The notes under the pieces are model-generated. The model made no database searches and was not told the DNA's origin. It saw only the letters and a program-made list of their open reading frames with translations. 64,000 nt of DNA from an uncultured delta proteobacterium (GTDB lineage: Bacteria; Desulfobacterota; Binatia; Binatales; Binataceae). The position numbers were made by a program, and so were the translations under genes. The stretch spans positions 287,717 through 351,716 of the forward strand of contig CAWAMM010000009.1 in the NCBI GenBank assembly GCA_963783145.1, in the 5' to 3' direction. This document shows positions 3,079 through 57,513 of this stretch, piece by piece; the first letter of the stretch is position 1; every line of letters starts with the position of its first letter.

Positions 3079-3555
3079 GTGGCAAGGCTGACTCGCTCGG
3101 ACGCGGAGGACATCCTTTATCGGGAGGCGCGCCTGCTCGACGAGTGCCGCCACCGCGAGTGGCTCGGCATGCTCACCGAAGAAGCGGTCTACTGGATGCC
3201 GGCCAATGGCGACGGCATCGATCCGAATCGCGAGGTGGCGCTGGTTTACGATAGCTCCGCGAAGTTGCGCGATCGTATCAACCGGCTCGCCTCAGGAGTC
3301 GCCCACGCGCAGAGCCCTCCCTCGAAGACCAAGCGACTGGTCTCGAATGTTCAAGTGGAAGCGTCCGAGGAAAACGCCGCGGCGATTGTTTGCGCGTTGA
3401 TTTTGTACGAATTGCGGCGCGGCAAGGAGCGCATCTTTGCGGGGCGCTGTGAGTATCGCCTGCGTTTGGTAGACGGTCATTGGAAGATCGCCTCCAAGAA
3501 GGTGGTGCTGGTTAATAATGGTGAGGTCATCGACAACTTGACCTTCATCGTTTAG
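3079..3555 (+). CDS. Aromatic ring-hydroxylating dioxygenase beta (small) subunit
   Basis: 158 aa SnoaL/NTF2-like sequence immediately downstream of the alpha subunit (20-nt gap). Confidence 0.7.
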   Translation: MARLTRSDAEDILYREARLLDECRHREWLGMLTEEAVYWMPANGDGIDPNREVALVYDSSAKLRDRINRLASGVAHAQSPPSKTKRLVSNVQVEASEENAAAIVCALILYELRRGKERIFAGRCEYRLRLVDGHWKIASKKVVLVNNGEVIDNLTFIV

Positions 3556-3583
3556 CCCTCAAAGGAGCTTGATCGTGAGTTAA

Positions 3584-3979
3584 TCAAACCCCCACGATGT
3601 CCGGTTTGAGGCTCTCGATGAACGCCACGACCTCGGCGCGTTCCTGTGCCGGAACCTGGAACGCATCCAAAGTGGCATTCAAATGGCCGCGGAACGACTG
3701 CCAGTCGGCCTCGTTAATTCGCATCCCGGTATGCGAGAGCTTCATGGGACGGCCAGTGTAGTAGGTTGGTCCCCCCGCGCAATTGCACAAGTAGTCGATA
3801 AGAAGTTGCTTTTCACGAGCGACGCCATCGGTGCCACGATGCGCCCAGAATCGCCCGAGCAGTTGGTCTCCCTCAAGCCGTGGCAAGAGGTCGTTTGCTA
3901 CAGCCGTAATCGCGCCGTGGCCGCCGAGACGTTCGTATAAGGTTTTCGGAGCATCACTACTCATCGATATTCTCTCCAC
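3584..3979 (-). CDS. Truncated haemoglobin (2/2 globin, group I-like)
   Basis: 131 aa; LYERLGG...AITAVANDL...FWAHRGTDG...MKLSHTGM pattern of trHb. Confidence 0.75.
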   Translation of the reverse strand: MERISMSSDAPKTLYERLGGHGAITAVANDLLPRLEGDQLLGRFWAHRGTDGVAREKQLLIDYLCNCAGGPTYYTGRPMKLSHTGMRINEADWQSFRGHLNATLDAFQVPAQERAEVVAFIESLKPDIVGV

Positions 3980-4132
3980 TCCGCAAAATTATGAGAATCA
4001 ACCTAAACCTCCCACACGCATAATGTCCAGAAGTGTTGTCGCGGGGCTTGCGAATCAAACTAGTCGCGATATTGTTGAAGAACAGCACGCGGCTCAGCCC
4101 TTCGAATCGGACCGCGCCATGGAGGCCACTTC

Positions 4133-6907: not shown

Positions 6908-7231
6908 TCACATGGAGCTTCGAGGAGTGAGCGCGACAAATATCTTCCCGTCCACAATTTTTACCGGGTAACTACTGACTTTGAGTCCTTGGATGCTGGT
7001 GCAATGGCCGCTGGTAACATCGTAGCGGAAGCCGTGGGCGCGGCAAGTCACGATAGTGCCGTGAAGCTTCCCGGACCCGAGCGACGCTCCAGCGTGTGCG
7101 CATGCATCATTTGTTGCATAGATATTCCCATCGACATTGAAAAGTGCGACGTCGATACCTGCGACCCGCACGGCGAGAGCCCGTCCAACCGGCAACCGGC
7201 TAAGGGCTATGGTTTCGAGATAGTCGTCCAT
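6908..7231 (-). CDS. Rieske [2Fe-2S] ferredoxin
   Basis: CAHAGASL...CRAHGFRYD (CxH...CxxH); 107 aa. Confidence 0.7.
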   Translation of the reverse strand: MDDYLETIALSRLPVGRALAVRVAGIDVALFNVDGNIYATNDACAHAGASLGSGKLHGTIVTCRAHGFRYDVTSGHCTSIQGLKVSSYPVKIVDGKIFVALTPRSSM

Positions 7232-7362
7232 CGAGTTTAAGTATCGACCCCATGCACGGTAGATGAAAGCTTCAGGCTATCCGAGCTTGAGACCGAGGGT
7301 CGGGGCTCGTAAGCTGGCCTGCACCGGCGAAACGCGGCGATTCGATCGCGCAAGGGGAAGCC

Positions 7363-7773
7363 ATGAACTACTTTCTTGCCAAAACCGACCCGGATACCTA
7401 TTCCATCGATGATTTCGAACGCGAGCGGCGTACCGTGTGGGATGGGGTCGCCAATGCGCAGGCGGTTCGCGCGATTCGAGAAATGCGCCCTGGCGATCGC
7501 GTGTTCATTTATCATAGCGGCGGCCTTTCGAGTGTCGTAGGAATGGCGGTGGTCAAATCGGCTCCGCGTGATGACCCCGGGAACCCGAAATCCGCGGTGG
7601 TCGATTTGGAATTTGCCGGCCGCCTCGAGCCGCCGGTGACCCTGGCCGAGATCAAGCAGTCGCGAAAGTTCGATGACTGGAGCCTGGTGCGCCAGGGCCG
7701 GCTTTCGACCATGGCAGCTCCCGAGAAATTCGCGCTCTGGATGCGCGAGCGGTATCCGAAGGCCAAAATTTAG
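7363..7773 (+). CDS. EVE (PUA-like) domain protein
   Basis: MNYFLAKTDPDTYSIDD...VFIYHSGG is the typical EVE domain start; 136 aa. Confidence 0.7.
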   Translation: MNYFLAKTDPDTYSIDDFERERRTVWDGVANAQAVRAIREMRPGDRVFIYHSGGLSSVVGMAVVKSAPRDDPGNPKSAVVDLEFAGRLEPPVTLAEIKQSRKFDDWSLVRQGRLSTMAAPEKFALWMRERYPKAKI

Positions 7774-17043: not shown

Positions 17044-17085
17044 AGTTGCAAGGAGCGATTCGAACCCCCGCAACATCGAATTCGC

Positions 17086-18141
17086 TTAGGGGCGCGCTTC
17101 GAAAACGAGATTGAAGGGGGTCGCGGCGGCGCGGCGAATTCGGGTAAACCCGCCCGCACCCAGCACTTCGCGCAGACGGGCTTCGCCTGCCTGCGTACCA
17201 AGTCCGAGGCCGACCTCCTGCGAGAGCGATGCCGGCACGCAGATAGTCGTCGATGCCGCATAGTAGAGGCGTCCAATAGGATTGAAATTGTCCTCCGTCT
17301 GATCCGCCGCATATGGTTCAACGACCATCCAGGTACCGTCCTCGGCAAGTCGCGTCTTCACATGGCGCGCGGCGCCTACCGGGTCACCCATGTCGTGCAG
17401 GCAATCGAAAAAGGCCACCAAATCATAAGTTCCCGGGAAGTTTTTCGCGGTCGCCTGTGCGAAATGCGCGCGATCCAAAACACCCGCTTCCTGCGCGAGT
17501 TCGCGCGCGCGGAGGATGGACGGTTCGTGGTAGTCGAAGCCGTAAAACTCAGATTTCGGATATGCCTTAGCCATCAGAATCACTGATGCGCCATGACCGC
17601 ATCCCACATCCGCGACTTTTGCGCCTTGCGCGAGTTTTTCATTCACGCCCTCCAGCGCCGGTATCCACGCGGACACCAGGTTCGTCGCATAGCTCGGCCG
17701 AAAGAAGCGCTCAGTGCCGCGGAAGAGGCAGGGGTCGTGCTCGTGCCATCCGACCCCGCCGCCGCTGCGGAACGCCTGTGCAACCTTGGGCTCATCACGG
17801 AGGGCAGCGGCCGCGATTTCATAGATGCCGGGGAAGAACGCGGGGCCGTTTTCATCGGCGAGCAAAAGCGCTTGCTCGGCGGACATCGAGTATTTTCCCG
17901 TCGCAGGGTCGTAGTTGATGTACCCGGCGGCGGCCTGACCCGCGCACCATTCGCGTACGTATCGTTCTACCGTACCGGTTTGCGCGGCGAGCTCCACCGG
18001 CGTGGACGGACCCTGGGCGGCAAGGGTTTTGTAGAGGCCCAACTGGTCGCCGAGGAGCACCAGCGCGCCGCCCATCGCTGCGCCAACGTCGCCGAGCATC
18101 TTCCCAACGAGTTCCTGAAGCTTCGTTTCATTGATGGCCAT
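17086..18141 (-). CDS. Class I SAM-dependent methyltransferase (O-methyltransferase-like)
   Basis: VADVGCGHGAS SAM-binding motif I; winged-helix dimerisation N-domain; 351 aa. Confidence 0.75.
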   Translation of the reverse strand: MAINETKLQELVGKMLGDVGAAMGGALVLLGDQLGLYKTLAAQGPSTPVELAAQTGTVERYVREWCAGQAAAGYINYDPATGKYSMSAEQALLLADENGPAFFPGIYEIAAAALRDEPKVAQAFRSGGGVGWHEHDPCLFRGTERFFRPSYATNLVSAWIPALEGVNEKLAQGAKVADVGCGHGASVILMAKAYPKSEFYGFDYHEPSILRARELAQEAGVLDRAHFAQATAKNFPGTYDLVAFFDCLHDMGDPVGAARHVKTRLAEDGTWMVVEPYAADQTEDNFNPIGRLYYAASTTICVPASLSQEVGLGLGTQAGEARLREVLGAGGFTRIRRAAATPFNLVFEARP

Positions 18142-18686
18142 GTTTGCTCGCGGCCTCCTGATTTATGGATTTGAGTTGACGACCTGCGCGGATAGGTGCA
18201 CGGGAAAGAACATAGATAATCGGTCATCTCAGCGTCAACGACTCTTGGCGCCACTACAGGTCTTAGTGTCGGCCTCCCGTCTGCGATGACCGAACTCCCG
18301 GGACGCGTCGGTATCGTTCGCCCGATTGCCGCAGAATTCTCGAGTGAGCGCGAGGAATCTCTGAAGGGGAAGAGCGGCTAGCGGAGAGGAAGGGAACGCA
18401 TCCGGCGGACGCTTCATCCTCGGGCTCGGCGCGGGATGGTTCGAGTTCGAACATCGGAGCCTTCGGATTCGATTTCAAACCGGCGGCGCAGCGCCTCGCA
18501 GCGCTCGACGAAGCGTGCCGAAGTAGTGCGCGCTCTTCTGTTGCATGCGGGAGCTGGCGGCGAGGGTTTCGAAATAATCGACTGGAATCATTCCGGTATT
18601 TGCCGTACGCCTTTTACGAGACCTTTTCACCGAACGTCGTGGATCAGAGGGAGTGGTCTGGCGATGTTGGTCTGAACTCTGAGCTG

Positions 18687-19097
18687 ATGGGAGTCGCACC
18701 GCGAGCGCCGCTTATTTTGTTCGACGGAGTCTGCAATCTGTGCAACGGCTGGGTGAGATTCGTGGTCCGTCGCGATCCTGCCGGAGTGTTTCGCTTCGCT
18801 GCGCAGCAATCGCCTGCCGGTCAGGCGTTGATCGAAGAGCGGATGAGAGGCGCGGTTGAATTGTCCAGCGTGATTCTGATCGTGGATGACGCGGCCTACA
18901 CCGAATCTGACGCCGTGCTCCAGATCCTTGCCCGCCTCGGTCGGCCCTGGTCCTGGGTCGTGTTCTTACGGTTCATTCCGCGTCGAGTCCGCGATGTCTG
19001 CTATCGATTCATCGCCCGTCATCGGTATCGATGGTTCGGGAAAACTGAACTCTGTCAGATCCCATCGCCGGAGATCAGGTCGAGATTCATCGAGTGA
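18687..19097 (+). CDS. DCC-family thiol-disulfide oxidoreductase (DUF393)
   Basis: ILFDGVCNLCNGWVRFVVRRDP signature. Confidence 0.7.
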   Translation: MGVAPRAPLILFDGVCNLCNGWVRFVVRRDPAGVFRFAAQQSPAGQALIEERMRGAVELSSVILIVDDAAYTESDAVLQILARLGRPWSWVVFLRFIPRRVRDVCYRFIARHRYRWFGKTELCQIPSPEIRSRFIE

Positions 19098-19144: not shown

Positions 19145-19729
19145 TCATCGAACGACCTGGCGGACTGCTCGGTACATCGCCATTTTTGAGCCGTCGGCGA
19201 ATTGCTTTTGCAGCGAACGAGACAGCGGGTACCCGAGTTTCGCCAGCGCGTGCCAGGGGCGCGAAAAAGCGAGAACGTCGTAGCAGACCTTGTCGGTGGC
19301 GCGGTTCCACTCGACCATGAAGCGCTCCTCGCCAGTCTCTGCGTGATCGCGAAGCGTGCCGTAAGCGAAGCCAAATTGGTCGGTAGCTCCGCTCTCGTCG
19401 ACAACGTAGACGATCCGGCATGCGTTCAATGAAAAGAAACCGAAGGCGTGCGCGCAAACGGCAACAACCGCTCCGACCTGTAGCGATGTGTCAGGCCAAT
19501 AGAGACGTACCCACGGGATATTGAACATTTTCCAAGCGCGAACTGCGGCGACCGCGCGCAACCACATCTGTTCGCCGCGGCCGAGCTCAATGCGATTGTG
19601 ATCCACGTTGTAGCCGCCGGGCACAGTGCCGGCCGACGCGCCCACCTCAGGATAGGAAAACTCTGCGTCCTCCTGATTCGCGATGAACCGGCGAACCTCG
19701 TCGTCCGCCGGCCGAGTCAAACGGAACAA
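19145..19729 (-). CDS. DUF1990-like protein
   Basis: 194 aa; FSYPEVGAS...GGY pattern recalled for DUF1990. Low-certainty family call. Confidence 0.45.
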   Translation of the reverse strand: MFRLTRPADDEVRRFIANQEDAEFSYPEVGASAGTVPGGYNVDHNRIELGRGEQMWLRAVAAVRAWKMFNIPWVRLYWPDTSLQVGAVVAVCAHAFGFFSLNACRIVYVVDESGATDQFGFAYGTLRDHAETGEERFMVEWNRATDKVCYDVLAFSRPWHALAKLGYPLSRSLQKQFADGSKMAMYRAVRQVVR

Positions 19730-19958
19730 ATGGCGACGCTCTCCTTTAGCCGATTAGGGGTTGTGGCTACCGAAAACCTCAACCGCGTGACGCGCTGTAG
19801 CGACTGAGGGAGTATAAGACAGGATCTTTGGTTGGGTGATTCGAGTATTCCTGATTCTCCGGCGGTTGCTCAATCGCTGCGCGCAGCGAGAATCAAGCGC
19901 GTCCGCGGAACCGCTTGAATCTTCAGATTTACCCCGAGAATCTCCAATTTAAAGCTGG

Positions 19959-20627
19959 TTGGCGGAGAGGGAGGGGGCCGCCTCGGAATTCGAACGTGGG
20001 GTACGCGATTCCGTCCATACCGTCCTCAAAGACCAATCTGCCCTCGCCACGACATTGCATGATTCAGGCGTGCCCCCGGCAGAGATCCAGTCGATTCTCA
20101 GAACCCTCCAAGCTCTCGATATCTCAGGACAATCGGATCGCTCGGAAACAACGAACCTGGCGCCGGTCGTGAGGAGAGTGGATCTTCGAAAAGACGGGAT
20201 CGAACTGTCAGTTGACCTTGAATCGATCGTTCCGCGTGGTGCCGACTCTCCGCCACTGACGATCACAAGATTCATTCCGCTTCGGATCGGGCGTCGGGGG
20301 GTAGCTATGCGGCTTGTTTTCGGAGGCGGGGTCTCGGCCCGCAAGCCGGATCCCTCACTTTTGAAAGCGGTCGCACGTGGATACCGCTGGTTTCACGAAG
20401 TCATTTCCGATCAAGGTATACTTCCCAGAGATATCGCGGCTCGCGAACGGGTAAACGAACGCTTCGTCCGACGACTAATGCCGCTTGCGTTTCTTGCACC
20501 GGCGGTGATTGAGGCAATCGTGGAAGGACGACAACCCCCCGAACTCACCGGTGAATTCCTCAGCCGCGGTATCGAGATTCCCGTCCAGTGGACGAAGCAG
20601 GCTGCAGCGCTCGGGTTTGCTGATTAA
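19959..20627 (+). pseudogene. Remnant C-terminal portion of a serine recombinase/resolvase-family protein (TTG-initiated ORF, no catalytic N-domain)
   Basis: C-terminal tail ...IEAIVEGRQPPELTGEFLSRGIEIPVQWTKQAAALGFAD resembles tails of recombinase-family proteins. It starts inside the att-like repeat and lacks the catalytic domain. Confidence 0.4.
19960..19995 (+). repeat. attR-like direct repeat of the 3' end of tRNA-Ser
   Basis: tggcggagagggaggg (19960-19975) is identical to 23806-23821, then a 12-nt insertion, then attcgaac matching 23822-23829. Confidence 0.55.
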
Positions 20628-21048
20628 AAGGCCCGCGAGGCCTGCTGCAACATTACTGGTGTTACCGCTTTCACTAGAACTGAGGAACACCGAGCGCAGG
20701 CGGAAGAAGAAACGGCGGAGACCCAAAAAGGTCCCCGGGAGGGTCGGAATCTGCTTCAACCGTTCCTTCTCACGCCGTTGTCCGTGATGTTGATGGTGAC
20801 CCTCGTAACATACTCGATGCGCGCTGTTCTCACACCGAGTAACGCAAACCCGGATTGTCCCATCTGTAAAGCTAACCCTTACTACGGATTCGCAGACTCA
20901 GGACCAACAATCGGCTACGATTCGCCCGCTTGACGGCGATCATGTAACGACGCAGCGCGAGTGCTATCAACTTCGTTGCGGCCGCAAAGACAGGTTTTGC
21001 GTTTGGTTCCGGCACTCCTGCTGGTACTCTTTTTGTCGGAGGTTCGCG

Positions 21049-21369
21049 ATGAGTAACTCGAACCACAGGATCATTTGCACCGATTGCGGACGCGATCAGC
21101 CAGTCGTCGAGGATGCTATATCGAATCCGGCGATCAAGCCTCCGGAACCGACAAGCGCGACCCCGAATCCGCGGAGCACCGCTCGCGCGCATCTCCATGC
21201 GACCCGCGAGAACGACGCCTGCACCGAGAGGGGCAGTATAAACCACATCGACGTAGTTTGCAGAGGTTCTCCAATCTGCGGCATTCATGACAAAACCGAG
21301 TTCCACGATCCGTATCCGAAGTGTCCCGGTGACCACCAGTGGGTGGGCTGCGAGTCCGATGGCGCGTAA
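21049..21369 (+). CDS. Small Cys-rich protein (putative zinc-binding), first gene of a 3-gene island operon
   Basis: GGAGG RBS 7 nt upstream; 106 aa with CxxC...C...C...CxxC...C pattern; stop overlaps next gene's start (ATGGCGCGTAA). Confidence 0.45.
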   Translation: MSNSNHRIICTDCGRDQPVVEDAISNPAIKPPEPTSATPNPRSTARAHLHATRENDACTERGSINHIDVVCRGSPICGIHDKTEFHDPYPKCPGDHQWVGCESDGA

Positions 21370-22135
21370 ACAACAACCTCCACAGACAGCGCCCGATCTG
21401 CCGCCGGAAAAGGCCTACACCGCTCTCAATCGGCAACTCGAAAAACTGAAACAGTTTAACGGGCGCCGATATGAGCAGATGAAAGCCGAAGAAACCGAAT
21501 GGCAGCAGTTCACGGAAAAGCTCGTGATTCGCTCATTCGGCAGCGACAGCCCGAATCATACGAACTTTCGAAATGCGCTGTTTGCTGGCGAGCACTACAT
21601 CCAGATGTGGGGGGAACGAGATCCGACTCTACCGCAGAGAAATTTCGAAGCTCGGCAACAGGAGTGTACAGCGGCGCTGCGGAGCTGCCTATTGGAGCTC
21701 GAACTCGACATCGGTGAAGGGCCAAGGGGCGTTTACGATCAGGGGCAGGAGTATGAGTACTATCGCGACATTTCTGGAATCCTGAAGCTCGCACAAAAAG
21801 AAATCTTCATAGCGGACCCATATTTGAATAAGGAAATTTTCGAAGTGTACGCCGATGTTATCGACCGAAGCGTGCACTTCCGTTTGCTCGGCACGAACAC
21901 ACCCGCCGACGTTAAAGCAATCGCGCAGATGTATGCGTCAGGCCGCAATTTTGAATTCCGTCAGAGTTCGGCTTTTCATGATAGGGTCCTGTTCGCGGAC
22001 GATCGCGTATGGCTTTCCGGGCAGTCGATTAAGGACGCCGCGAAGAAGAAGCCAACTTACATCGTGGAGCACGACGAGAAGCTGATGCGGCCGGTTTACG
22101 AGACCATATGGCAGTCTGCGACGGTGCTGATCTGA
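21359..22135 (+). CDS. Hypothetical protein (island operon gene 2)
   Basis: 258 aa from ATG 21359, translationally coupled to the upstream gene; no recognised motif. Confidence 0.5.
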   Translation: MARKQQPPQTAPDLPPEKAYTALNRQLEKLKQFNGRRYEQMKAEETEWQQFTEKLVIRSFGSDSPNHTNFRNALFAGEHYIQMWGERDPTLPQRNFEARQQECTAALRSCLLELELDIGEGPRGVYDQGQEYEYYRDISGILKLAQKEIFIADPYLNKEIFEVYADVIDRSVHFRLLGTNTPADVKAIAQMYASGRNFEFRQSSAFHDRVLFADDRVWLSGQSIKDAAKKKPTYIVEHDEKLMRPVYETIWQSATVLI

Positions 22136-23139
22136 TCGTGGCGCCTCAGAAGTCCAAAGGCCGCTCGCCGGGTCCAGCTGGTGTTTCCGAGATCGAAGAT
22201 GGCTTCGCGTTGAGGAAGCTCCGATCGCTAGCCGCCGCCGAGAAATCCCGCACTCCGGAAGCGACGGACCAGTGCGCAATACCGGCCCCGCTGGCGAAGC
22301 ATATTCTTTCTAGCTACACGCTCGCTAATCCGACTAGCAAACGCGCTGTTTCCGATTACGTCTGGACGCAGGCTCGTGGTGAGAAGGTGTTGCACGCCGA
22401 GAAGGTGAAGACCGAACGCGCATTGGGCAGCGATCACGATTGTTGGGATGTTCATACAAATGCTGATCGCTATTGGGTGATAACCTCGCCGACGAATCTG
22501 TATTCGCAGCACGACTTCCCCAGCCTGGACTTCACGCTCTCGTTTCACATCGGTGTTACTGCTCGGATAGTGGAGCGCTCGCGCGGCGCACCGAACGACG
22601 CCCAAAAGGCGAGAATGCCACCGGTATGGCGACGGTGGGAGCAAGCCGCCGAGACGCTGGATATGGCGCAGGAGGCTGAAGATTTTCAGGCGGTGGGCAT
22701 GAAGTGTCGCGAATGCCTCCTCGAACTCGTACGCTCGCTTTCGCGACCTGGGATAGTGCCGTCCGGCGAAGATCCCCCACAGGGAAGTAACTTCTTAGCG
22801 TGGTCGGGATTCATCGCAAACAACGTGGCAGCAGGAACGAGCGCAGATCGAATCCGAGGGCATCTGAAATCCACCGCAAAATCGGCGTGGGAATTGGCGA
22901 GCTGGTTGACGCACGCAACCGGAGCCGGACATCACGATGCTGAATTCGTCCTCGACGCGACCCACAACGTAATCGCAATTTTCGGACAGGCGGTCATCCG
23001 GCATGAGAGCGGGATGCCGGAGCGCTGCCCCAGGTGCAGCTCGTACAATCTCGACGTGGGCTTCAATCCTGAACTGGCCCGTCCGTACGTTACCGAATGC
23101 GAAGAGTGCGGCTGGCAGAGTCCGGTCGCCGAGAAATGA
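22108..23139 (+). CDS. Hypothetical protein with C-terminal zinc ribbon (island operon gene 3)
   Basis: 343 aa; overlaps gene 2 by 28 nt; C-terminal CPRCSS...CEECGW. Confidence 0.5.
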   Translation: MAVCDGADLIVAPQKSKGRSPGPAGVSEIEDGFALRKLRSLAAAEKSRTPEATDQCAIPAPLAKHILSSYTLANPTSKRAVSDYVWTQARGEKVLHAEKVKTERALGSDHDCWDVHTNADRYWVITSPTNLYSQHDFPSLDFTLSFHIGVTARIVERSRGAPNDAQKARMPPVWRRWEQAAETLDMAQEAEDFQAVGMKCRECLLELVRSLSRPGIVPSGEDPPQGSNFLAWSGFIANNVAAGTSADRIRGHLKSTAKSAWELASWLTHATGAGHHDAEFVLDATHNVIAIFGQAVIRHESGMPERCPRCSSYNLDVGFNPELARPYVTECEECGWQSPVAEK

Positions 23140-23805
23140 CTAGTCTAACAGACTCACTTTTGGCGGCGGACATTGCCAAATCACCTAGTTCGCTGCTTCG
23201 GTTAACAGCTTCTCTCTGGCCTTATTGAGCCGAGATACAATTGATGCATGCAATGTCTCCAGCTACGACTGTCATCTTCCCGCGGCAGTGATCGAGATGG
23301 TCAAGCACGGATTCAAAATCCGGATAGTCGTCACGGATAAACTCGATTGGTCAAAGGGCTACAAGGAGGGACGCAGAGACTCCCCACGGTCCATCCCGAA
23401 GCCGATCTGTCAGATTACGTGGCTGGAATGCCGTTTCCGCTGGTGGACACAGCTTTGGCTATTCGGGTTCGGGCGCGGCAACAAAGCAGGTACGGCGAGC
23501 CGCACTTCCCTTCGTCTGCGATCAGTTCAGCGTCATCCGCATCGCAGCGAGGTAGGAACTCGCCAAACCGGCTCCTTCCAGCAGGGCGCCAACGGCTTTG
23601 CCCCGACACGCCCTCATTTGAACGGCCTCCGAAATTTCGCCTGATTTGTCACGGCACCAGCAGAAATTAAATCAGAGAAAAAGCTCTCGGATTCCTCCAT
23701 TGCCGGCTTGTGCGGCTTTCTCTGGTGCCGTTAGTGATCCAAAATCGGCCCGAAAAGCGGCGATTTTGAGAAAATTTGTGAAGAATCTAGGATCCGACGG
23801 ACTGA

Positions 23806-23896
23806 GTGGCGGAGAGGGAGGGATTCGAACCCCCGGAGCCGTTAGGCTCACCTGATTTCGAGTCAGGCCGGTTAAACCAAACTCCCGAACCTCTCC
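23806..23896 (-). tRNA. tRNA-Ser (anticodon CGA), class II with long variable arm
   Basis: Reverse complement folds as GGAGAGG acceptor, 3-bp D-stem, CCTGA/TCAGG anticodon stem with loop CTCGAAA, 16-nt variable arm, T-arm GGGGGTTCGAATCCCTC, discriminator G and CCA. Confidence 0.9.
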
Positions 23897-35774: not shown

Positions 35775-37301
35775 ATGCGGCGATTCCCTAGGTATCTTAT
35801 TGCCGGCGGGCTGGTGGCCTGCCTCGTTGCGGTCAGTTGTTCTTTCAACGAACCCCGGATCCGTTCCGAACCGGTCATTCTTCAGCCGCAAGGATATAAC
35901 AATAAGATTCCGCTTTCGGCAGGAGCGGTCCCAACGGCAACTGCTGCGGTGCCAGGCAGCGTGGCTCCCCTTTCGACATCCAGTGAGGAAGAGGGAGAGG
36001 ACGCAGCAAGCCTGGATACGCGATGCCAGGAAAAAACTGCCTGGTATACGCGCTGGTTGGGTTGCATGGTTGGAGGAACCGCCGGCAACGAATGTGTGTA
36101 TGAGGTCGTAACGGAAGACAGTCTCGATAGAGCACTCCTTTCGCCAAGTCAGGCGACTCGGGACAACGCCATTTTGACCGTCCTCTATCTGTCAGATCGA
36201 AGTTGCGCAAACTTTCGCGCCAAAGTGTTCGCTTTTCGTACCAGCGCAAGTTTTGCCGGCGGATTTTTTAATTCCATTCTGTCCGGTACCTCCGCGATTA
36301 CGGCTCTCGTAAGTGGCCCTGCCGGTTCAGCCTTGTCGGCCGCCAACTTGGCAACCGGGAGCGCCCTGAACGGAATCAACTCCAGCTACTACGCGAACAA
36401 GATGATGGATCAACTAGACGCGGAAATGGACGCTCAGCGTAACGCTCTTAAAGCGCAAATCCTGGCGCACATCCCGCCGCAAAACTCGGGCGGGCAAGAT
36501 GGCGGAAACGGCTCGCCAGTTCCGACTCCTACGGCCGCCGCCAGACCCTATAGCGGCCTCGATGCCAAATTGGATCTCCAAGCCTACGACAATCTTTGTT
36601 CACTGGAGACCTTGACCCACTCCGTGACCGCCACTCCAACACCTACGGCCACCGCTACGCCGGCCGCTACTCCCACCTCTAATGCTCTGGTCTTCAATCC
36701 CGGCAAGTTAAACATGAGCGTTGAGTGGGGGAACGCGACCCCCGACGCTGTCAGCGCTTCAGTAAAGCTTGGTAACCCACTTCCGACGCCTGTTACTGTC
36801 ACGGCTGTTGCGAAGTCAGGCGCCGGTGCCGCCGCCTTCACGCCAGGAGCGTGCTCGACCCCGATTACGGCTAATGGTGGATCTTGCACGCTTTCAGTTT
36901 CATTCTTGCCCCCCTCCGCGACCGGTAGTCCTTGGAACGCGTCCATTGCAGTGACGGATGACGCACCGGGAAAAGCAACGCCACTACAAGTCAGAGGGAT
37001 GGTCAAGGTCGCTCTCTTGAAAGCTCCCGAGTCAGTCAAACTACTCAAAGAAAATACTGCCTATGCATTTACATTGGAGAATACAGGTAAGACGGCCACA
37101 GTTCAGATAGACAGCATAACGCCCAGCGATAGTATTTTCAGCGTGGCGACCAATAACTGTACGACTATTACGCACGGGGCTTCCTGCCAATCGGCCGTCA
37201 CGCTCACCTCGTCCCCTTGTAAACCCGGCAAGCTGACTGTTGCTTACGACACGACCGAGACAAAACAGACAAAAAATATCACACTTGCGTGTTCTCATTG
37301 A
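35775..37301 (+). CDS. Lipoprotein with conserved 4-Cys N-domain, T/P-rich linker and Ig-like C-terminal domains
   Basis: Lipobox VAVSC; N-domain paralogous to the 38525-39193 product. Confidence 0.5.
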   Translation: MRRFPRYLIAGGLVACLVAVSCSFNEPRIRSEPVILQPQGYNNKIPLSAGAVPTATAAVPGSVAPLSTSSEEEGEDAASLDTRCQEKTAWYTRWLGCMVGGTAGNECVYEVVTEDSLDRALLSPSQATRDNAILTVLYLSDRSCANFRAKVFAFRTSASFAGGFFNSILSGTSAITALVSGPAGSALSAANLATGSALNGINSSYYANKMMDQLDAEMDAQRNALKAQILAHIPPQNSGGQDGGNGSPVPTPTAAARPYSGLDAKLDLQAYDNLCSLETLTHSVTATPTPTATATPAATPTSNALVFNPGKLNMSVEWGNATPDAVSASVKLGNPLPTPVTVTAVAKSGAGAAAFTPGACSTPITANGGSCTLSVSFLPPSATGSPWNASIAVTDDAPGKATPLQVRGMVKVALLKAPESVKLLKENTAYAFTLENTGKTATVQIDSITPSDSIFSVATNNCTTITHGASCQSAVTLTSSPCKPGKLTVAYDTTETKQTKNITLACSH

Positions 37302-37431
37302 GTAAAAAGCGATCGGCTGGACGAACTCTGGAAGGCGAATGATCTTTTGTGAAAGCTCGAACGGAAGCTCGGGGAAAAGAGTGGCTACGGTAGCGATTCG
37401 AAACAATCGATGTGGTAGGCCTGGGGCCTCG

Positions 37432-38430
37432 ATGAGGACCGCGTTTTGTTGCCTCGCAATTGCTTTGCTTGCGGTGTTCCCTTCGACTTGGGCGTTGGCG
37501 CAGACCCCGATCACAACCTGCGGCACCAATATTACCACCGCGGGCTTTTACTTCCTTCCATCCCAGATCGACTGTAGCCAGACCGCCAACCAGGTCGCGA
37601 TCGCGGTGAACGCCAGTGGCGTCGATCTCAATCTCAATGGTCAAACCATTATAGGTTCACCTGTCGGTGGCAACGCGGTCGCGGTCGCGCTCGGGACTAC
37701 CGCAACCGATTGCTCTTTAGCAACCGGGGCAATCGCCAATGTCAGAGTACATGGTGTAATGGCGACCATGGACATCTCCACGGCAATCATTGCTTGTCAA
37801 ACCAGCAATTCCATTTTTGATCATGTTACGATCGACGGTCCTGCTGACGGGATCGTGCTCGAAGAAAAATCCAACAATAATTTTGTGCTGGCCAATACCA
37901 TCACTGCCTCCGACATCGGAATTCAAATCGGCGCAAACAACGACGGATCGGACTCTGACACCACCAACAGCATCGAAGGCAACACCATAATAACGCCATC
38001 TAAGGTGAGCCAGTCACCTAGCCCTCCGGAGACCGCGGGAATCCTGCTCTATACCGGCGCTACGGAAACTCAGGTCACTGCCAATACCGTGATGAACGGC
38101 TGGCTCAATGGGATTGACCTAAGACGCTGCGCCTCACCGGTGGGTCATTCACCCTGCGATAGCGGACCGAGCGGGAATTTCCTTCAACAGAATATATCAA
38201 ATGGAAACATTACCGGCATCAGGCTTTCCGGAGCGGCCGGCAATCGCATCCAGGACAACAACGCAAAGAACAATCAGACTGGAAAAGATATGGCGGGCGT
38301 CATCGACGACAACAATAGCGCACCTCGCAAACCATGCGCTAACACCTGGGTGGACAACTTCTACGACGGAAAACTGGGCAAACTGCGGTGCATTCCAGGC
38401 AGCAAGCGCAATTCAGTTTCCGGGAACTGA
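37432..38430 (+). CDS. Secreted right-handed parallel beta-helix repeat protein
   Basis: Signal peptide MRTAFCCLAIALLAVFPSTWALA; repeated N/G/T-rich beta-helix coils (NxI/GI motifs). Confidence 0.5.
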   Translation: MRTAFCCLAIALLAVFPSTWALAQTPITTCGTNITTAGFYFLPSQIDCSQTANQVAIAVNASGVDLNLNGQTIIGSPVGGNAVAVALGTTATDCSLATGAIANVRVHGVMATMDISTAIIACQTSNSIFDHVTIDGPADGIVLEEKSNNNFVLANTITASDIGIQIGANNDGSDSDTTNSIEGNTIITPSKVSQSPSPPETAGILLYTGATETQVTANTVMNGWLNGIDLRRCASPVGHSPCDSGPSGNFLQQNISNGNITGIRLSGAAGNRIQDNNAKNNQTGKDMAGVIDDNNSAPRKPCANTWVDNFYDGKLGKLRCIPGSKRNSVSGN

Positions 38431-54962: not shown

Positions 54963-56042
54963 GTGAATTTAAGACTTGGCCATTCAACCCGGTTGGGTTG
55001 CGCAGCGGGCAAAAGTCTGGCTTCCTCGAAGAGAGGTGCAAAGAAATTGATCTCAGAAAGTGACGCGGATCACGCATACGTTCGCCTCAAGGAGCTGCTA
55101 GAGAAGAAGGCCCTCTTTCGTCGTTCAGATCCAAAGCTAAGCGAGGCCGACACTCGCGCTAAATTGATCGATCCCCTCTTCCGCGATGTCCTCGGATGGC
55201 CGGAAGTAGAAATCCGAAGAGAAAAGCCGGTTGACAGCGGGTTCGCGGACTATGTTTTAGGTGCGGACGTAGCGTTCCTATTGGTCGAGGCAAAGAGGAC
55301 CAATCCACGTTTTCACATAGATGCGCCAACCCGACCGCGGAAGGTGCGCTTGGACGGGCCCCACCTCTTGGGGCAAAAAAAAGTGAAACCTCTCATAGAG
55401 CAGGTACAGGCTTATGCGAGCTCGCAGGGGGCTCAGTTCGCGATTCTGACAAATGGATCTCAGTTAGTGATTTTCAAGCCCTATCTTCCCGGGCGTTCTT
55501 GGTCGACTGGAACCGCCATCGTATTTCATGACCACGACGACATCGTCCAAGACTTCGCGCTGTTCCACCGGCTGCTTTCAAGAGATCGGGTCTATGCAGG
55601 TTCCCTGTTGGAGGAGTTCGAACAAATCGAAGGCATCACTACAACGTTCTATACGCCAATACAATTTCTCGATGATCCTGATGCCGAATTAGTACGAAAT
55701 CCGCTCTGGATAAAGATCGCGACCGTGTTAAGTCCCCTGTTCACCGACAATTTTGAAGATCCAGCTTTGCAACGCGAGATAATTGAAAATTGCTACGTGA
55801 CCACACCGCTCTCTGACCAAGCAGACGCTAGTCTCGACCGAAGGATAAGAGACACGCTCCCTATCAGCCTGAAAAACGCCGGAATTCAGGAGCTGGCACC
55901 CGGCTCCGGAATGCACAGCGCCTTCGGCCAGGGTTTAGAAAAGGACATTAGTATCCTCTCGTCGTCCAGGTACTTACGTTCTGACCGGCGGAGTGGGGAG
56001 CGGGAAGACAACGTTTTTGCGGCGTTTCGTCATGATTGGTAG
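54963..56042 (+). CDS. HsdR_N/Mrr-like PD-(D/E)xK restriction-endonuclease-fold protein
   Basis: SEADTRAKLIDPLFRDVLGW...ADYVLG...FLLVEAKR...AQFAILTNGSQLVIF matches the HsdR N-terminal nuclease domain pattern. The last ~20 aa are R-rich and look off-frame. Confidence 0.6.
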   Translation: MNLRLGHSTRLGCAAGKSLASSKRGAKKLISESDADHAYVRLKELLEKKALFRRSDPKLSEADTRAKLIDPLFRDVLGWPEVEIRREKPVDSGFADYVLGADVAFLLVEAKRTNPRFHIDAPTRPRKVRLDGPHLLGQKKVKPLIEQVQAYASSQGAQFAILTNGSQLVIFKPYLPGRSWSTGTAIVFHDHDDIVQDFALFHRLLSRDRVYAGSLLEEFEQIEGITTTFYTPIQFLDDPDAELVRNPLWIKIATVLSPLFTDNFEDPALQREIIENCYVTTPLSDQADASLDRRIRDTLPISLKNAGIQELAPGSGMHSAFGQGLEKDISILSSSRYLRSDRRSGEREDNVFAAFRHDW

Positions 56043-57513
56043 AGGATTTGTTGAGAACTACTGCATCTGGACACACGTCGACTTCCTTCCGTTTGGAAAT
56101 ATCGACCAAAACGTGGTCGATTCAGAAGTCCGCAGTTTTGTCTACCGACAAATCAGAAACGAGTTGGTGCGTTTGTATTCATCCAATATCCCGAGCAGCG
56201 GTTCGGAAATCCGTCAGCTGTTCTCAAGCGAGCTCGAGCGAGCGGAGAGAACGAAGCTTTATTCGATACCTCCAGATTCTCCAGAGTGGACCAAAGAAGT
56301 GAACGCTATCGTCGAGGCGCTTTATTCCGACGATGCGGCATTCGTAGACGCTCTTTTGAGAAAATTCGTCACCGGCGGTCTTCGACCGGTTTTCGTCTTA
56401 GATAACACCGATCAGTTGGGAGAACAATTTCAGGAAAGAGTTTTCCTTCTAGCCCAGAAGCTATCTCAGGAGCATAAGGCTCTTTCGATCGTAGCCTTGC
56501 GGGAAGAAAAGTTTTTTGCCGCTTTCCGACGCGGCATCTTCGATGCCTTTGGAGATAGGAGGTTTCATATTGGTTCGCCGGATCTCCGTAAGGTTCTCCA
56601 AAGGCGGCTCAACTACGGCCGCGAGAAGTTCCAACGGATCATGCAGGAAGGAAATTACCTGTCTAAGGAGGAGCTGCTAGATATTGATACCCTGCTGGAT
56701 GTACTCATTCGGTCCACCACTTCAGGTAATGCGAACATAGTTCGGATGCTGGCCTGTGTATCTAACGGCGACATGAGACATGCCCTTGATATGTTCCGGG
56801 AGTTCGTCAGTTCCGGAAACACCAACGTTAGTAAGATTATGAGTATAGGACGCGGCTACAAGGTGGCATTTCATGAGTTCGCCAAGTCAGCGATTCTCGG
56901 CTCCCGAAAGTACTATCGTAGCAACGTTTCGCACGTAGTAAATCTGCTTAAACCCTCGGCTGCTCGCCGGGCATCTCACTTGACTGCCATCAGAACACTA
57001 GCGAGACTTTCTCGCGCTGAAGAGGCTTCGTCACCCCACGGGGAGGGTTTTGTAAAGACAAAATCGCTTTTGCGAGAATACCGAGAATCGTTCGGTATTG
57101 CGGAGGACTTTCAAGAATGGGCCAACGAGCTCTTGCTACGTGGTCTCATAGAATCGGAGCCTCCACGGGTCGAAGGACTGGATAAGGCCGAGGCGCTAAG
57201 AATTACCGCGTCGGGAGCTTACTATTGGAAGTATCTTGTTCGAGCGTTTGCGTACATGGACTTGGTGTTTGTCGATACGCCCATCGAGGACAAGAATCTA
57301 GCCCACGAGCTCGCAAACCTCTCGGACGAGAACGACATGCCAGCTCGCTTTAAGAGGGTTCGGCTGTTTATGGACTACCTTGAAAAAGAGGAGAGGAGGG
57401 AGCTTTTGGAGGCAGCCCGGCGGACGGGACCTTATCAGGAGTCGCTGATGGGCCAAGTTCGAGAGCAGATCGAGGAGGAGATCCGCGTGATATCCAGCAA
57501 ACTGGATCTCTAA
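55993..57513 (+). CDS. P-loop NTPase (Walker A/B) with large C-terminal helical domain; probably the C-terminal part of a frameshifted fusion
   Basis: Frame continues upstream to stop at 55936 as RRPGTYVLTGGVGSGKTTFLRRF (Walker A); Walker B VFVLDNTDQ; GTG start lies inside the P-loop. Confidence 0.65.
   Translation: MGSGKTTFLRRFVMIGRGFVENYCIWTHVDFLPFGNIDQNVVDSEVRSFVYRQIRNELVRLYSSNIPSSGSEIRQLFSSELERAERTKLYSIPPDSPEWTKEVNAIVEALYSDDAAFVDALLRKFVTGGLRPVFVLDNTDQLGEQFQERVFLLAQKLSQEHKALSIVALREEKFFAAFRRGIFDAFGDRRFHIGSPDLRKVLQRRLNYGREKFQRIMQEGNYLSKEELLDIDTLLDVLIRSTTSGNANIVRMLACVSNGDMRHALDMFREFVSSGNTNVSKIMSIGRGYKVAFHEFAKSAILGSRKYYRSNVSHVVNLLKPSAARRASHLTAIRTLARLSRAEEASSPHGEGFVKTKSLLREYRESFGIAEDFQEWANELLLRGLIESEPPRVEGLDKAEALRITASGAYYWKYLVRAFAYMDLVFVDTPIEDKNLAHELANLSDENDMPARFKRVRLFMDYLEKEERRELLEAARRTGPYQESLMGQVREQIEEEIRVISSKLDL

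Follow-up and report, generated by a model that had tools for sequence, protein, structure and literature searches.

A variant of the phospholipase D (PLD) fold carrying a His-Asp-Arg (HDR) motif has been described as common to MIT_C, PB-PLD1 (Menshen NsnC) and the C-termini of BrxL, and the same 2025 analysis predicted that HDR-PLD domains are nuclease effectors in Menshen NsnC and BrxL (PMC12065111). The PLD-like domain of MITD1 has been described as a membrane-binding module (PMC11962514). Among the single-gene candidates of PADLOC, one representative of PDC-S05, annotated with a RhuM domain, cut the plating of T7 and T5 approximately 1000-fold in Escherichia coli and gave protection against T4 as well (bioRxiv 10.1101/2024.09.26.614923); a literature search found no papers on a further candidate, PDC-S35. 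Here we compare with these proteins the products of three adjacent genes, genes 1–3, which lie at positions 21049-23139 of a 64,000-nucleotide stretch of DNA (the window) from an uncultured delta proteobacterium of the Binataceae (GenBank assembly GCA_963783145.1, contig CAWAMM010000009.1, positions 287,717 to 351,716). An original prediction had taken the three for a translationally coupled operon, carried as the cargo of an island and forming a candidate defence or accessory module. We find that genes 2 and 3 belong to separate families that were not neighbours in any locus outside this lineage, and that the locus is probably a decayed island at tRNA-Ser(CGA), in which two independently mobile single-gene defence-type genes have secondarily come to abut, together with an orphan open reading frame (ORF).

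The three genes occur independently

The co-occurrence of the genes was determined by searching 106 fetched loci with tblastn and hidden Markov models. For gene 2 the set included 12 loci from GTDB genomes, for gene 3 it included 80 from metagenomes, and look-ups of individual homologues supplied others. The triplet was present in four contigs only, all of the same lineage; 19 loci held gene 2 only, and 83 held gene 3 without a member of the gene 2 family (77 with gene 3 alone, four with a recombinase in addition and two with a distant HDR-PLD gene). Gene 3 was found in none of the 17 gene 2 loci, of which about 12 are independent and each of which has at least 1.4 kb of downstream sequence, and the N-terminal domain of gene 2 was found in none of 77 independent gene 3 loci. 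No neighbouring family recurred in more than four loci. The notion of a single system made up of three genes therefore fails, with the triplet confined to a single lineage, gene 1 an orphan and genes 2 and 3 apart elsewhere; each of the three is independent of the other two. Co-conservation of the triplet in other genomes was never found, an outcome that the original prediction had itself named as counting against it.

The junction between genes 2 and 3 can be judged from the closest relative of gene 3 (locus L027). This locus is 91% identical in nucleotide sequence to the window over positions 22175-23379 only, its gene 3 homologue has its own ATG, and it adjoins katG. The onset of homology at 22175 coincides with the onset of the conserved N-terminus of the gene 3 family and, because the L027 homology starts there, the first 22 or so codons of gene 3 in the window, with the overlap with gene 2, form a secondary junction. 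The tight coupling that had been read as the sign of a system is thus, for genes 2 and 3, a recent and lineage-specific junction, since in L027 gene 3 stands alone beside katG. At the other end, the first 240 or so nucleotides past the gene 3 stop codon are 91% identical to the DNA 3' of the L027 homologue, so that the start of the spacer travels with gene 3. This was the sole match when the gene 1 region and the spacers were compared by tblastx and blastn with more than 100 fetched loci.

The three ORFs themselves were confirmed, all on the forward strand (106, 258 and 343 residues; Table 1). Gene 1 has the GGAGG ribosome-binding site that had been claimed for it, 6 nt 5' of its ATG, and the overlap ATGGCGCGTAA between genes 1 and 2 is genuine, the TAA of gene 1 and the ATG of gene 2 both lying within it. 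The frame of gene 2 is open from 21287, giving a 282-residue ORF, and the start at 21359 is supported by homologues of about 260 residues that cover 91% of this long form. The 28-nt overlap of genes 2 and 3 is present if the 343-residue ORF is taken, but it rests on an ATG that the homologues do not use: these are about 320 residues long and begin at around residue 22-26 of the window ORF, and a GTG at 22138, 2 nt past the gene 2 stop codon, could serve equally well as the start. Four independent assemblies (ENA, JGI, Logan), all of the same lineage, carry the triplet at 100% identity, and it is therefore no assembly artefact. In one assembly of this lineage (L011:1390-2167; ENA ERZ25039553 contig_89154) a frameshift splits gene 2 into parts of 119 and 147 residues, owing either to an error of sequencing or to a pseudogene variant that occurs naturally. 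Scans for sigma-70 promoters and terminators gave no signal above shuffled expectation, and a hairpin 5' of gene 1 scored z = -0.2; the three genes may be co-transcribed.

The low GC content that had been noted for the genes proved a weak argument, with values of 0.589, 0.533 and 0.592 for genes 1, 2 and 3, respectively, against 0.5915 for the window. The GC content of the island as a whole is 0.564, compared with 0.591 ± 0.019 for windows of 3.8 kb, 9% of which are lower. The lowest kilobase bins of the window, at 37001-38000 (0.518) and 55001-57000 (0.494-0.528, against 0.59), fall below the GC content of the island and may be other acquired segments.

Gene 1 encodes seven cysteines, rather than the eight or more that had been counted, and of the CxxC-like pairs ascribed to it one is a true CxxC (C10/C13), the others being spaced Cx5C or Cx8C or isolated. 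Pfam, PADLOC and NCBIfam gave no match to it and PHROG no meaningful one, and a search of 5.8 billion proteins gave three matches, none from outside the lineage: one identical copy, one copy on a duplicate contig and a fragment. The diverged copy (P0242, L107) was tried for an estimate of dN/dS and set aside as unusable, its contig_18467 being taken for an error-prone duplicate; this contig is 3.9 kb long, has fragmented gene calls and comes from the same assembly as the 372-kb contig_18466. The codon score of gene 1, +0.08 bits per codon, compares with 0.30 ± 0.14 for long ORFs and lies near that of the recombinase remnant upstream; its frame scores best of the six on codon usage, only slightly above the antisense frame. 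Gene 1 is thus an orphan ORF that may or may not be translated.

Gene 2 and the HDR group of PLD-like proteins

The AlphaFold2 model of gene 2 (predicted local distance difference test score, pLDDT, 86.7) is helical in its N-terminal half and forms an alpha/beta domain at the C-terminus. Foldseek matched this model to the PLD superfamily at probability 1.0 and E values of 1e-8 to 5e-3, the matches being TrmBL2/TrmB (1e-8), Zucchini/PLD6, FAM83, vaccinia F13, PssA and PLD3 (4e-5 to 1e-3), and PLD1/2. A profile of the domain, compared with the PDB, found TrmBL2 (1.5e-5), the C-terminal domain of MITD1 (0.004) and Nuc (0.095), and in the alignment with MITD1 (4A5Z) the DPY and IHDR of one protein fall on the DPY and IHDR of the other. 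The PLD-like segment FHDRVLFADDRVWLSGQSIKD that had been pointed out in the original prediction is real and carries the invariant residues of the family, and the absence of a canonical HxK that had been remarked on is also correct: in place of HxK(x)4D(x)6G(S/T)xN, gene 2 has Arg for Lys and GxSxKD for GSxN, with the spacing matched. The DPY, HDR and GxSxKD motifs stay invariant in relatives with 29-38% identity, and Asp214 is conserved in about 90% only. Because these polar residues are invariant down to 29% identity, they point to a catalytic site or one for a specific ligand.

The statement that gene 2 carries no recognisable motif did not survive this comparison, since H-D-R and G-x-S-x-K-D together are the described MIT_C-like HDR variant of PLD. 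As judged from sequence, gene 2 fits that clade, having both the HDR and an acidic residue after an early strand, and it joins the HDR/MIT_C-like PLD group as a new member, with PADLOC candidates among its relatives. The Pfam models gave no significant match: gene 2 scores 12.8 bits (E 0.11) with PLDc_2 (PF13091), against a cut-off of 27, and a Nitrosospira relative 16.2 bits, while the MIT_C model gave no match to gene 2 or nine relatives at E values up to 5, a search in which the HMMER filters may hide weak matches.

The gene 2 family (326 matches) is tightly conserved at about 260 residues, and the genomes that can be named are mostly metagenome-assembled genomes of Acidobacteriota. Its C-terminal domain matches PDC-S05 models of PADLOC at E values of 2.4e-13 and 9e-12, covering positions 152-300 of 306 only, and its N-terminal part matches PDC-S35 at 3.7e-5, covering positions 6-99 of 264. 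Because both matches are partial, gene 2 is a domain-shuffled relative of PDC-S05 and PDC-S35 and no clear member of either. The neighbours of its homologues include GmrSD, HNH, a UvrD-like helicase, MazE/PIN and integrases, and both the gene 2 and the gene 3 families are almost absent from 2.9 million IMG/VR viral contigs.

Gene 2 would most likely act alone, as a homodimeric phosphodiesterase or nuclease of the PLD superfamily and of the MIT_C-like HDR type. A dimeric active site is implied because each chain has one motif, like the single-domain PLD nucleases; by analogy with Nuc and Zucchini, one site would be built from two subunits, each contributing its H-D-R and G-x-S-x-K-D motifs. The helical N-terminal half may then serve in dimerisation, in sensing or in both.

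Gene 3 and its neighbourhoods

The gene 3 family is very large: clustering at 90% identity leaves more than 1071 clusters, and at 50% there are 1455 representatives. Neither gene 3 nor 64 diverse members matched any Pfam, PADLOC, NCBIfam or PHROG model beyond weak zinc-ribbon matches. In the AlphaFold2 model (pLDDT 78.8) the N-terminal residues 1-72 are disordered, residues 94-133 form a beta domain of four strands and residues 140-301 a helical bundle, and a zinc ribbon follows at the C-terminus. The CPRC...CEEC zinc ribbon noted originally is real: in the model it has strands at 315-319 and 327-331 and two CxxC knuckles, and all four cysteines are invariant in the family, as are Tyr132, His147, Arg201, Trp261 and Ser312, across 28-46% identity. 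The conserved polar residues are Tyr132, His147, Arg201, Arg250 and His269.

The best fold matches of the helical bundle are to HEPN domains, weakly, at E values of 0.1-0.5. The Rx4-6H motif is not conserved in gene 3, in which Arg201, Arg250 and His269 are not so spaced, and the HEPN models of Pfam and PADLOC matched none of the 64 members. A Foldseek search of viral structures (BFVD) gave nothing below an E value of 0.07, and the reading of the beta domain as a PD-(D/E)xK nuclease is unsupported for want of a matching motif pattern. Some members of the family have C-terminal extensions of about 200-250 residues, which hold a SEC-C motif (P0245, P0304) or a gamma-glutamyl cyclotransferase-like domain (AIG2/GGACT; P0338). 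Gene 3 would most likely act alone or with variable neighbours, as a nucleic-acid binder that has a zinc ribbon and a tail both basic and disordered, the conserved polar residues being borne by the HEPN-like bundle and the beta domain; its role is probably nucleic-acid-directed and defence-associated.

The neighbourhoods of gene 3 are variable and rich in defence genes. Of the 46 gene 3 loci that extend 1 kb or more downstream, 29 have a co-directional ORF that starts at -54 to +142 bp from the gene 3 stop codon, and these followers vary, including a cytidine deaminase, Schlafen AlbA_2, Shedu SduA_C, DUF6602, DUF5677, SEC-C and PLD (examples in Table 1). They could reflect an architecture of variable partners or simply dense defence islands. 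An arrangement of gene 3 and its tight neighbours as integron-like cassettes was considered and rejected, the same spacing leaving no room for attC. Other neighbours include TIR, GmrSD/HEC-06, Abi_alpha, Abi_C and mREase_IV, and the PADLOC family that recurs most among the 109 immediate neighbours is PDC-S05. Two loci place a distant HDR-PLD gene beside gene 3: in L034 it lies upstream and divergent, 64 bp away (6922-7749, minus strand), and in L100 downstream on the same strand (3324-4112, plus strand), next to a gene 3 copy that is a frameshifted pseudogene. The two HDR-PLD proteins are 28-31% identical to gene 2, have N-termini unrelated to its own and match PDC-S05 at an E value of 2.7e-21. 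The neighbourhoods have the signature of a defence island, which fits either stacked independent genes or a sensor with swappable effectors. The anti-phage or accessory habits attributed to the cargo are thus borne out for genes 2 and 3, through their variable, defence-rich neighbourhoods and the match of gene 2 to a PADLOC candidate.

The island at tRNA-Ser(CGA) and its likeness to known systems

The setting is as originally described, with the cargo flanked by a recombinase remnant and by tRNA-Ser(CGA) on the minus strand, and the genes are indeed cargo of a small island integrated at the tRNA, whose 3' end is repeated at the far boundary. The exact 16-mer TGGCGGAGAGGGAGGG lies at 19960-19975 (distal) and at 23807-23822 (proximal, the 3' end of the tRNA); it occurs exactly twice in 64 kb, compared with 0.01 occurrences expected by chance, and bounds an insertion of 3.83 kb (19976-23801). 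The recombinase remnant is the C-terminal 215 or so residues of a protein of about 560 residues, the catalytic N-terminal domain having gone; recombinase ORFs in L032 (full length, a 561-residue frame), L049 and L101 have C-termini that share 35-38% identity with it. Serine recombinases in these independent loci (L032:3113-4795, L049:13513-15027 and L101, minus strand, 2302-2946) lie 3-6 kb from gene 3 homologues, which suggests that elements with a serine recombinase often carry gene 3. In the spacer that separates gene 3 from the tRNA, the minus-strand fragments look like a decayed gene; Rfam matched only the tRNA, and no RNA family in 23140-23806.

Further upstream, the sequence GGAGCGATTCGAACCCCCG at 17052-17070 is an 18/19 copy of part of the T-arm of the tRNA (23817-23835) and may be what is left of an older att site, in which case the methyltransferase, DCC1-like and DUF1990 genes that follow it would belong to an earlier insertion.

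Table 1. Features of the island and its surroundings. Coordinates refer to the window, except in the last row, in which they refer to the fetched loci named.
Feature	Coordinates	Strand	Basis or remarks
Gene 1, orphan ORF with 7 Cys and 7 His	21049-21369	+	GGAGG ribosome-binding site; stop overlaps gene 2 start
Gene 2 (258 residues)	21359-22135	+	
Gene 2, N-terminal all-helical half (residues 1-124; long helix 91-118)	21359-21730	+	AlphaFold2 model; PDC-S35
Gene 2, C-terminal PLD-superfamily domain, MIT_C-like HDR type	21731-22135	+	Foldseek, PDB profiles, PDC-S05
Gene 2, D153-P-Y155, contributes to putative site	21815-21823	+	Invariant in family
Gene 2, putative active or ligand site H207-D208-R209...G221-Q-S223-I-K225-D226	21977-22036	+	Invariant in 45 family members
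Gene 3, 343-residue ORF (native about 320 residues)	22108-23139	+	GTG 22138 alternative; conserved part from 22175
Gene 3, C-terminal zinc ribbon, C307-x2-C310...C331-x2-C334	23026-23109	+	Four Cys invariant, 64 diverse members
tRNA-Ser(CGA), integration target	23807-23896	-	ARAGORN; Rfam tRNA 48.7 bits
Distal att-like direct repeat, copy of tRNA-Ser 3' end	19955-19975	+	16 nt exact; 19/21 with 5 nt past tRNA end
Truncated large serine recombinase	19959-20627	+	phrog_14161 'recombinase' 7.9e-18; ORF start inside distal repeat
Gene-poor spacer	23140-23806	.	Minus-strand frameshifted ORF fragments only (23222-23700)
Methyltransferase gene	17086-18141	-	
DCC1-like gene	18600-19097		
DUF1990 gene	19145-19729	-	
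Genes following gene 3, examples	L032:8982-9638, L051:9031-10233, L061:2469-3482, L081:8938-10119, L096:1244-1807		

We therefore regard the locus as probably a decayed island holding two unrelated single-gene cargoes and an orphan ORF, and several observations weigh against this. An HDR-PLD gene is juxtaposed with gene 3 in three independent cases (the window, L034 and L100), in our judgement more than chance would give, which makes a functional link possible, if far from obligate. Housekeeping genes, among them katG and a tRNA synthetase, account for many of the neighbours of gene 3, and the resemblance of gene 3 to HEPN proteins is weak (E about 0.1), with no conserved Rx4-6H. Neither TrmBL2/TrmB nor MITD1, the closest solved relatives of gene 2, is known to be an enzyme; gene 2 has HxR where HxK would be expected, its PLDc_2 score falls short of the cut-off, its match to PDC-S05 is limited to the C-terminal half of that model, and it has no RhuM domain. 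The juxtapositions would be accounted for if genes 2 and 3, with or without gene 1, formed a cooperative module, a loosely conserved two-gene system in which gene 3 was a sensor or adaptor with interchangeable effectors, here an HDR-PLD nuclease. The recurrence of PDC-S05 near gene 3, the close co-directional followers of changing identity and the fusion of some gene 3 relatives to SEC-C or AIG2/GGACT domains are all in keeping with such a module, which we nonetheless consider unlikely. Gene 3 is near the gene 2 family in none of the roughly 12 independent loci, and 75 of the 77 gene 3 loci are without any PLD gene; where a PLD partner is present, its orientation, position and N-terminal domain differ each time (in the window it is upstream on the same strand), and in L100 it is intact beside a broken gene 3. 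Shedu SduA, one of the supposed partners, acts as a single-gene system, the calling of longest ORFs overstates the closeness of the spacing, and the junction of genes 2 and 3 in the window is demonstrably secondary. The broader proposal seems to us rather unlikely, namely that there is an undescribed immune system of modular build in which the gene 3 family provides the conserved sensor or adaptor and adjacent, swappable genes the effectors, with the pair in the window as one working instance; its effectors may include the HDR-PLD nuclease, the cytidine deaminase, and the Schlafen-like, Shedu-type nuclease and SEC-C proteins.

It is also rather unlikely that gene 2 is no enzyme at all, its PLD-like domain serving dimerisation or ligand binding in a DNA-binding regulator like TrmB/TrmBL2 or a membrane binder like MITD1, and the locus being regulatory or accessory and not defensive. 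TrmBL2/TrmB are the best matches of gene 2 by profile and by Foldseek, across both the long helix and the PLD-like domain, MITD1 provides the precedent of a membrane-binding domain with this fold, and the canonical HxK and GSxN are missing. TrmBL2, however, is without the H-D-R and G-x-S-x-K-D residues, and the invariance of these in the gene 2 family points to catalysis or a specific ligand; the N-terminal model has no winged-helix strands, the Pfam search found no helix-turn-helix family, and the defence-rich neighbourhoods, which vary from locus to locus, are unlike those of a local regulator. We think it very unlikely that the cargo is functionally dead, that is, a decaying island in which the ORFs are open by happenstance, gene 1 amounting to a chance ORF within a leader. 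The truncation of the recombinase, the 670 nt beside the tRNA that hold frameshifted fragments only, the split gene 2 of one same-lineage assembly, the confinement of gene 1 to its lineage with marginal codon statistics, and promoter and terminator signals at the shuffled expectation would all agree with decay of this extent. Genes 2 and 3, however, are of full length with none of the family-invariant residues lost, three other assemblies have the triplet at 100% identity, and gene 1 has a strong ribosome-binding site at ideal spacing and the best codon score of the six frames. We accordingly keep to the decayed island with two independent defence-type genes, in which an anti-phage role for either would be exercised without the other.

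As a three-gene system the locus is of little weight, the operon being a local accident, and it is the two families that matter. Gene 2 adds a compact, stand-alone family of about 260 residues to the HDR clade of PLD domains (MITD1, BrxL C-termini, Menshen NsnC) and, as a small, soluble bacterial member, is a handy test case for whether that clade is enzymatic. Gene 3 stands for a very large unannotated family amid defence genes, often with a variable co-directional follower, and this family is a reasonable candidate for systematic screens for defence systems.

In comparison with the MIT_C-like HDR domains (MITD1, 4A5Z and 2YMB; PB-PLD1; the C-termini of BrxL), gene 2 has the same PLD fold, with HDR in the place of HxK, and shares with MITD1 the acidic residue past an early strand, within a DPY found in both. 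It differs in standing alone and in having a helical N-terminal half in place of a MIT, ParB-associated or AAA+ domain, and the tie in sequence is a profile E value of 0.004 only; enzymatic activity is at most predicted for members of the clade. The single-domain PLD nucleases (Nuc, 1BYR; Zucchini/PLD6; the catalytic domain of BfiI) resemble gene 2 in fold, with target-normalised TM scores of 0.5-0.64, but they have HxK(x)4D(x)6GSxN where gene 2 has HxR...GxSxKD, and gene 2 stays below the PLDc_2 threshold. TrmB and TrmBL2 (3QPH, 5BOX), the best matches of solved structure, likewise have a long helix followed by a PLD-like domain, and the TrmBL2 profile match begins at this helix; TrmBL2 has an N-terminal winged helix and is without the gene 2 motifs, whereas the N-terminus of gene 2 is purely helical and unrelated in sequence. 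The PADLOC candidates resemble gene 2 half by half, PDC-S05 in the C-terminus and PDC-S35 in the N-terminal part, and the validated PDC-S05 protein differs by its RhuM domain.

For gene 3, the HEPN proteins of abortive infection and toxin systems (2Q00, 8YUF, Abi_C) give the best, if weak, fold matches of the bundle, and Abi_C genes adjoin gene 3 homologues in three loci; gene 3 differs from them in lacking Rx4-6H and in having, in addition, the conserved beta domain and the zinc ribbon. The island as a whole is very small (3.8 kb) beside other genomic (defence) islands integrated at tRNA genes, its recombinase is of the serine type, truncated and distal to the tRNA, and it is without any intact mobility gene, but it has in common with them the site at the 3' end of a tRNA, the direct repeat, the combination of a recombinase with accessory cargo, and a slightly low GC content.

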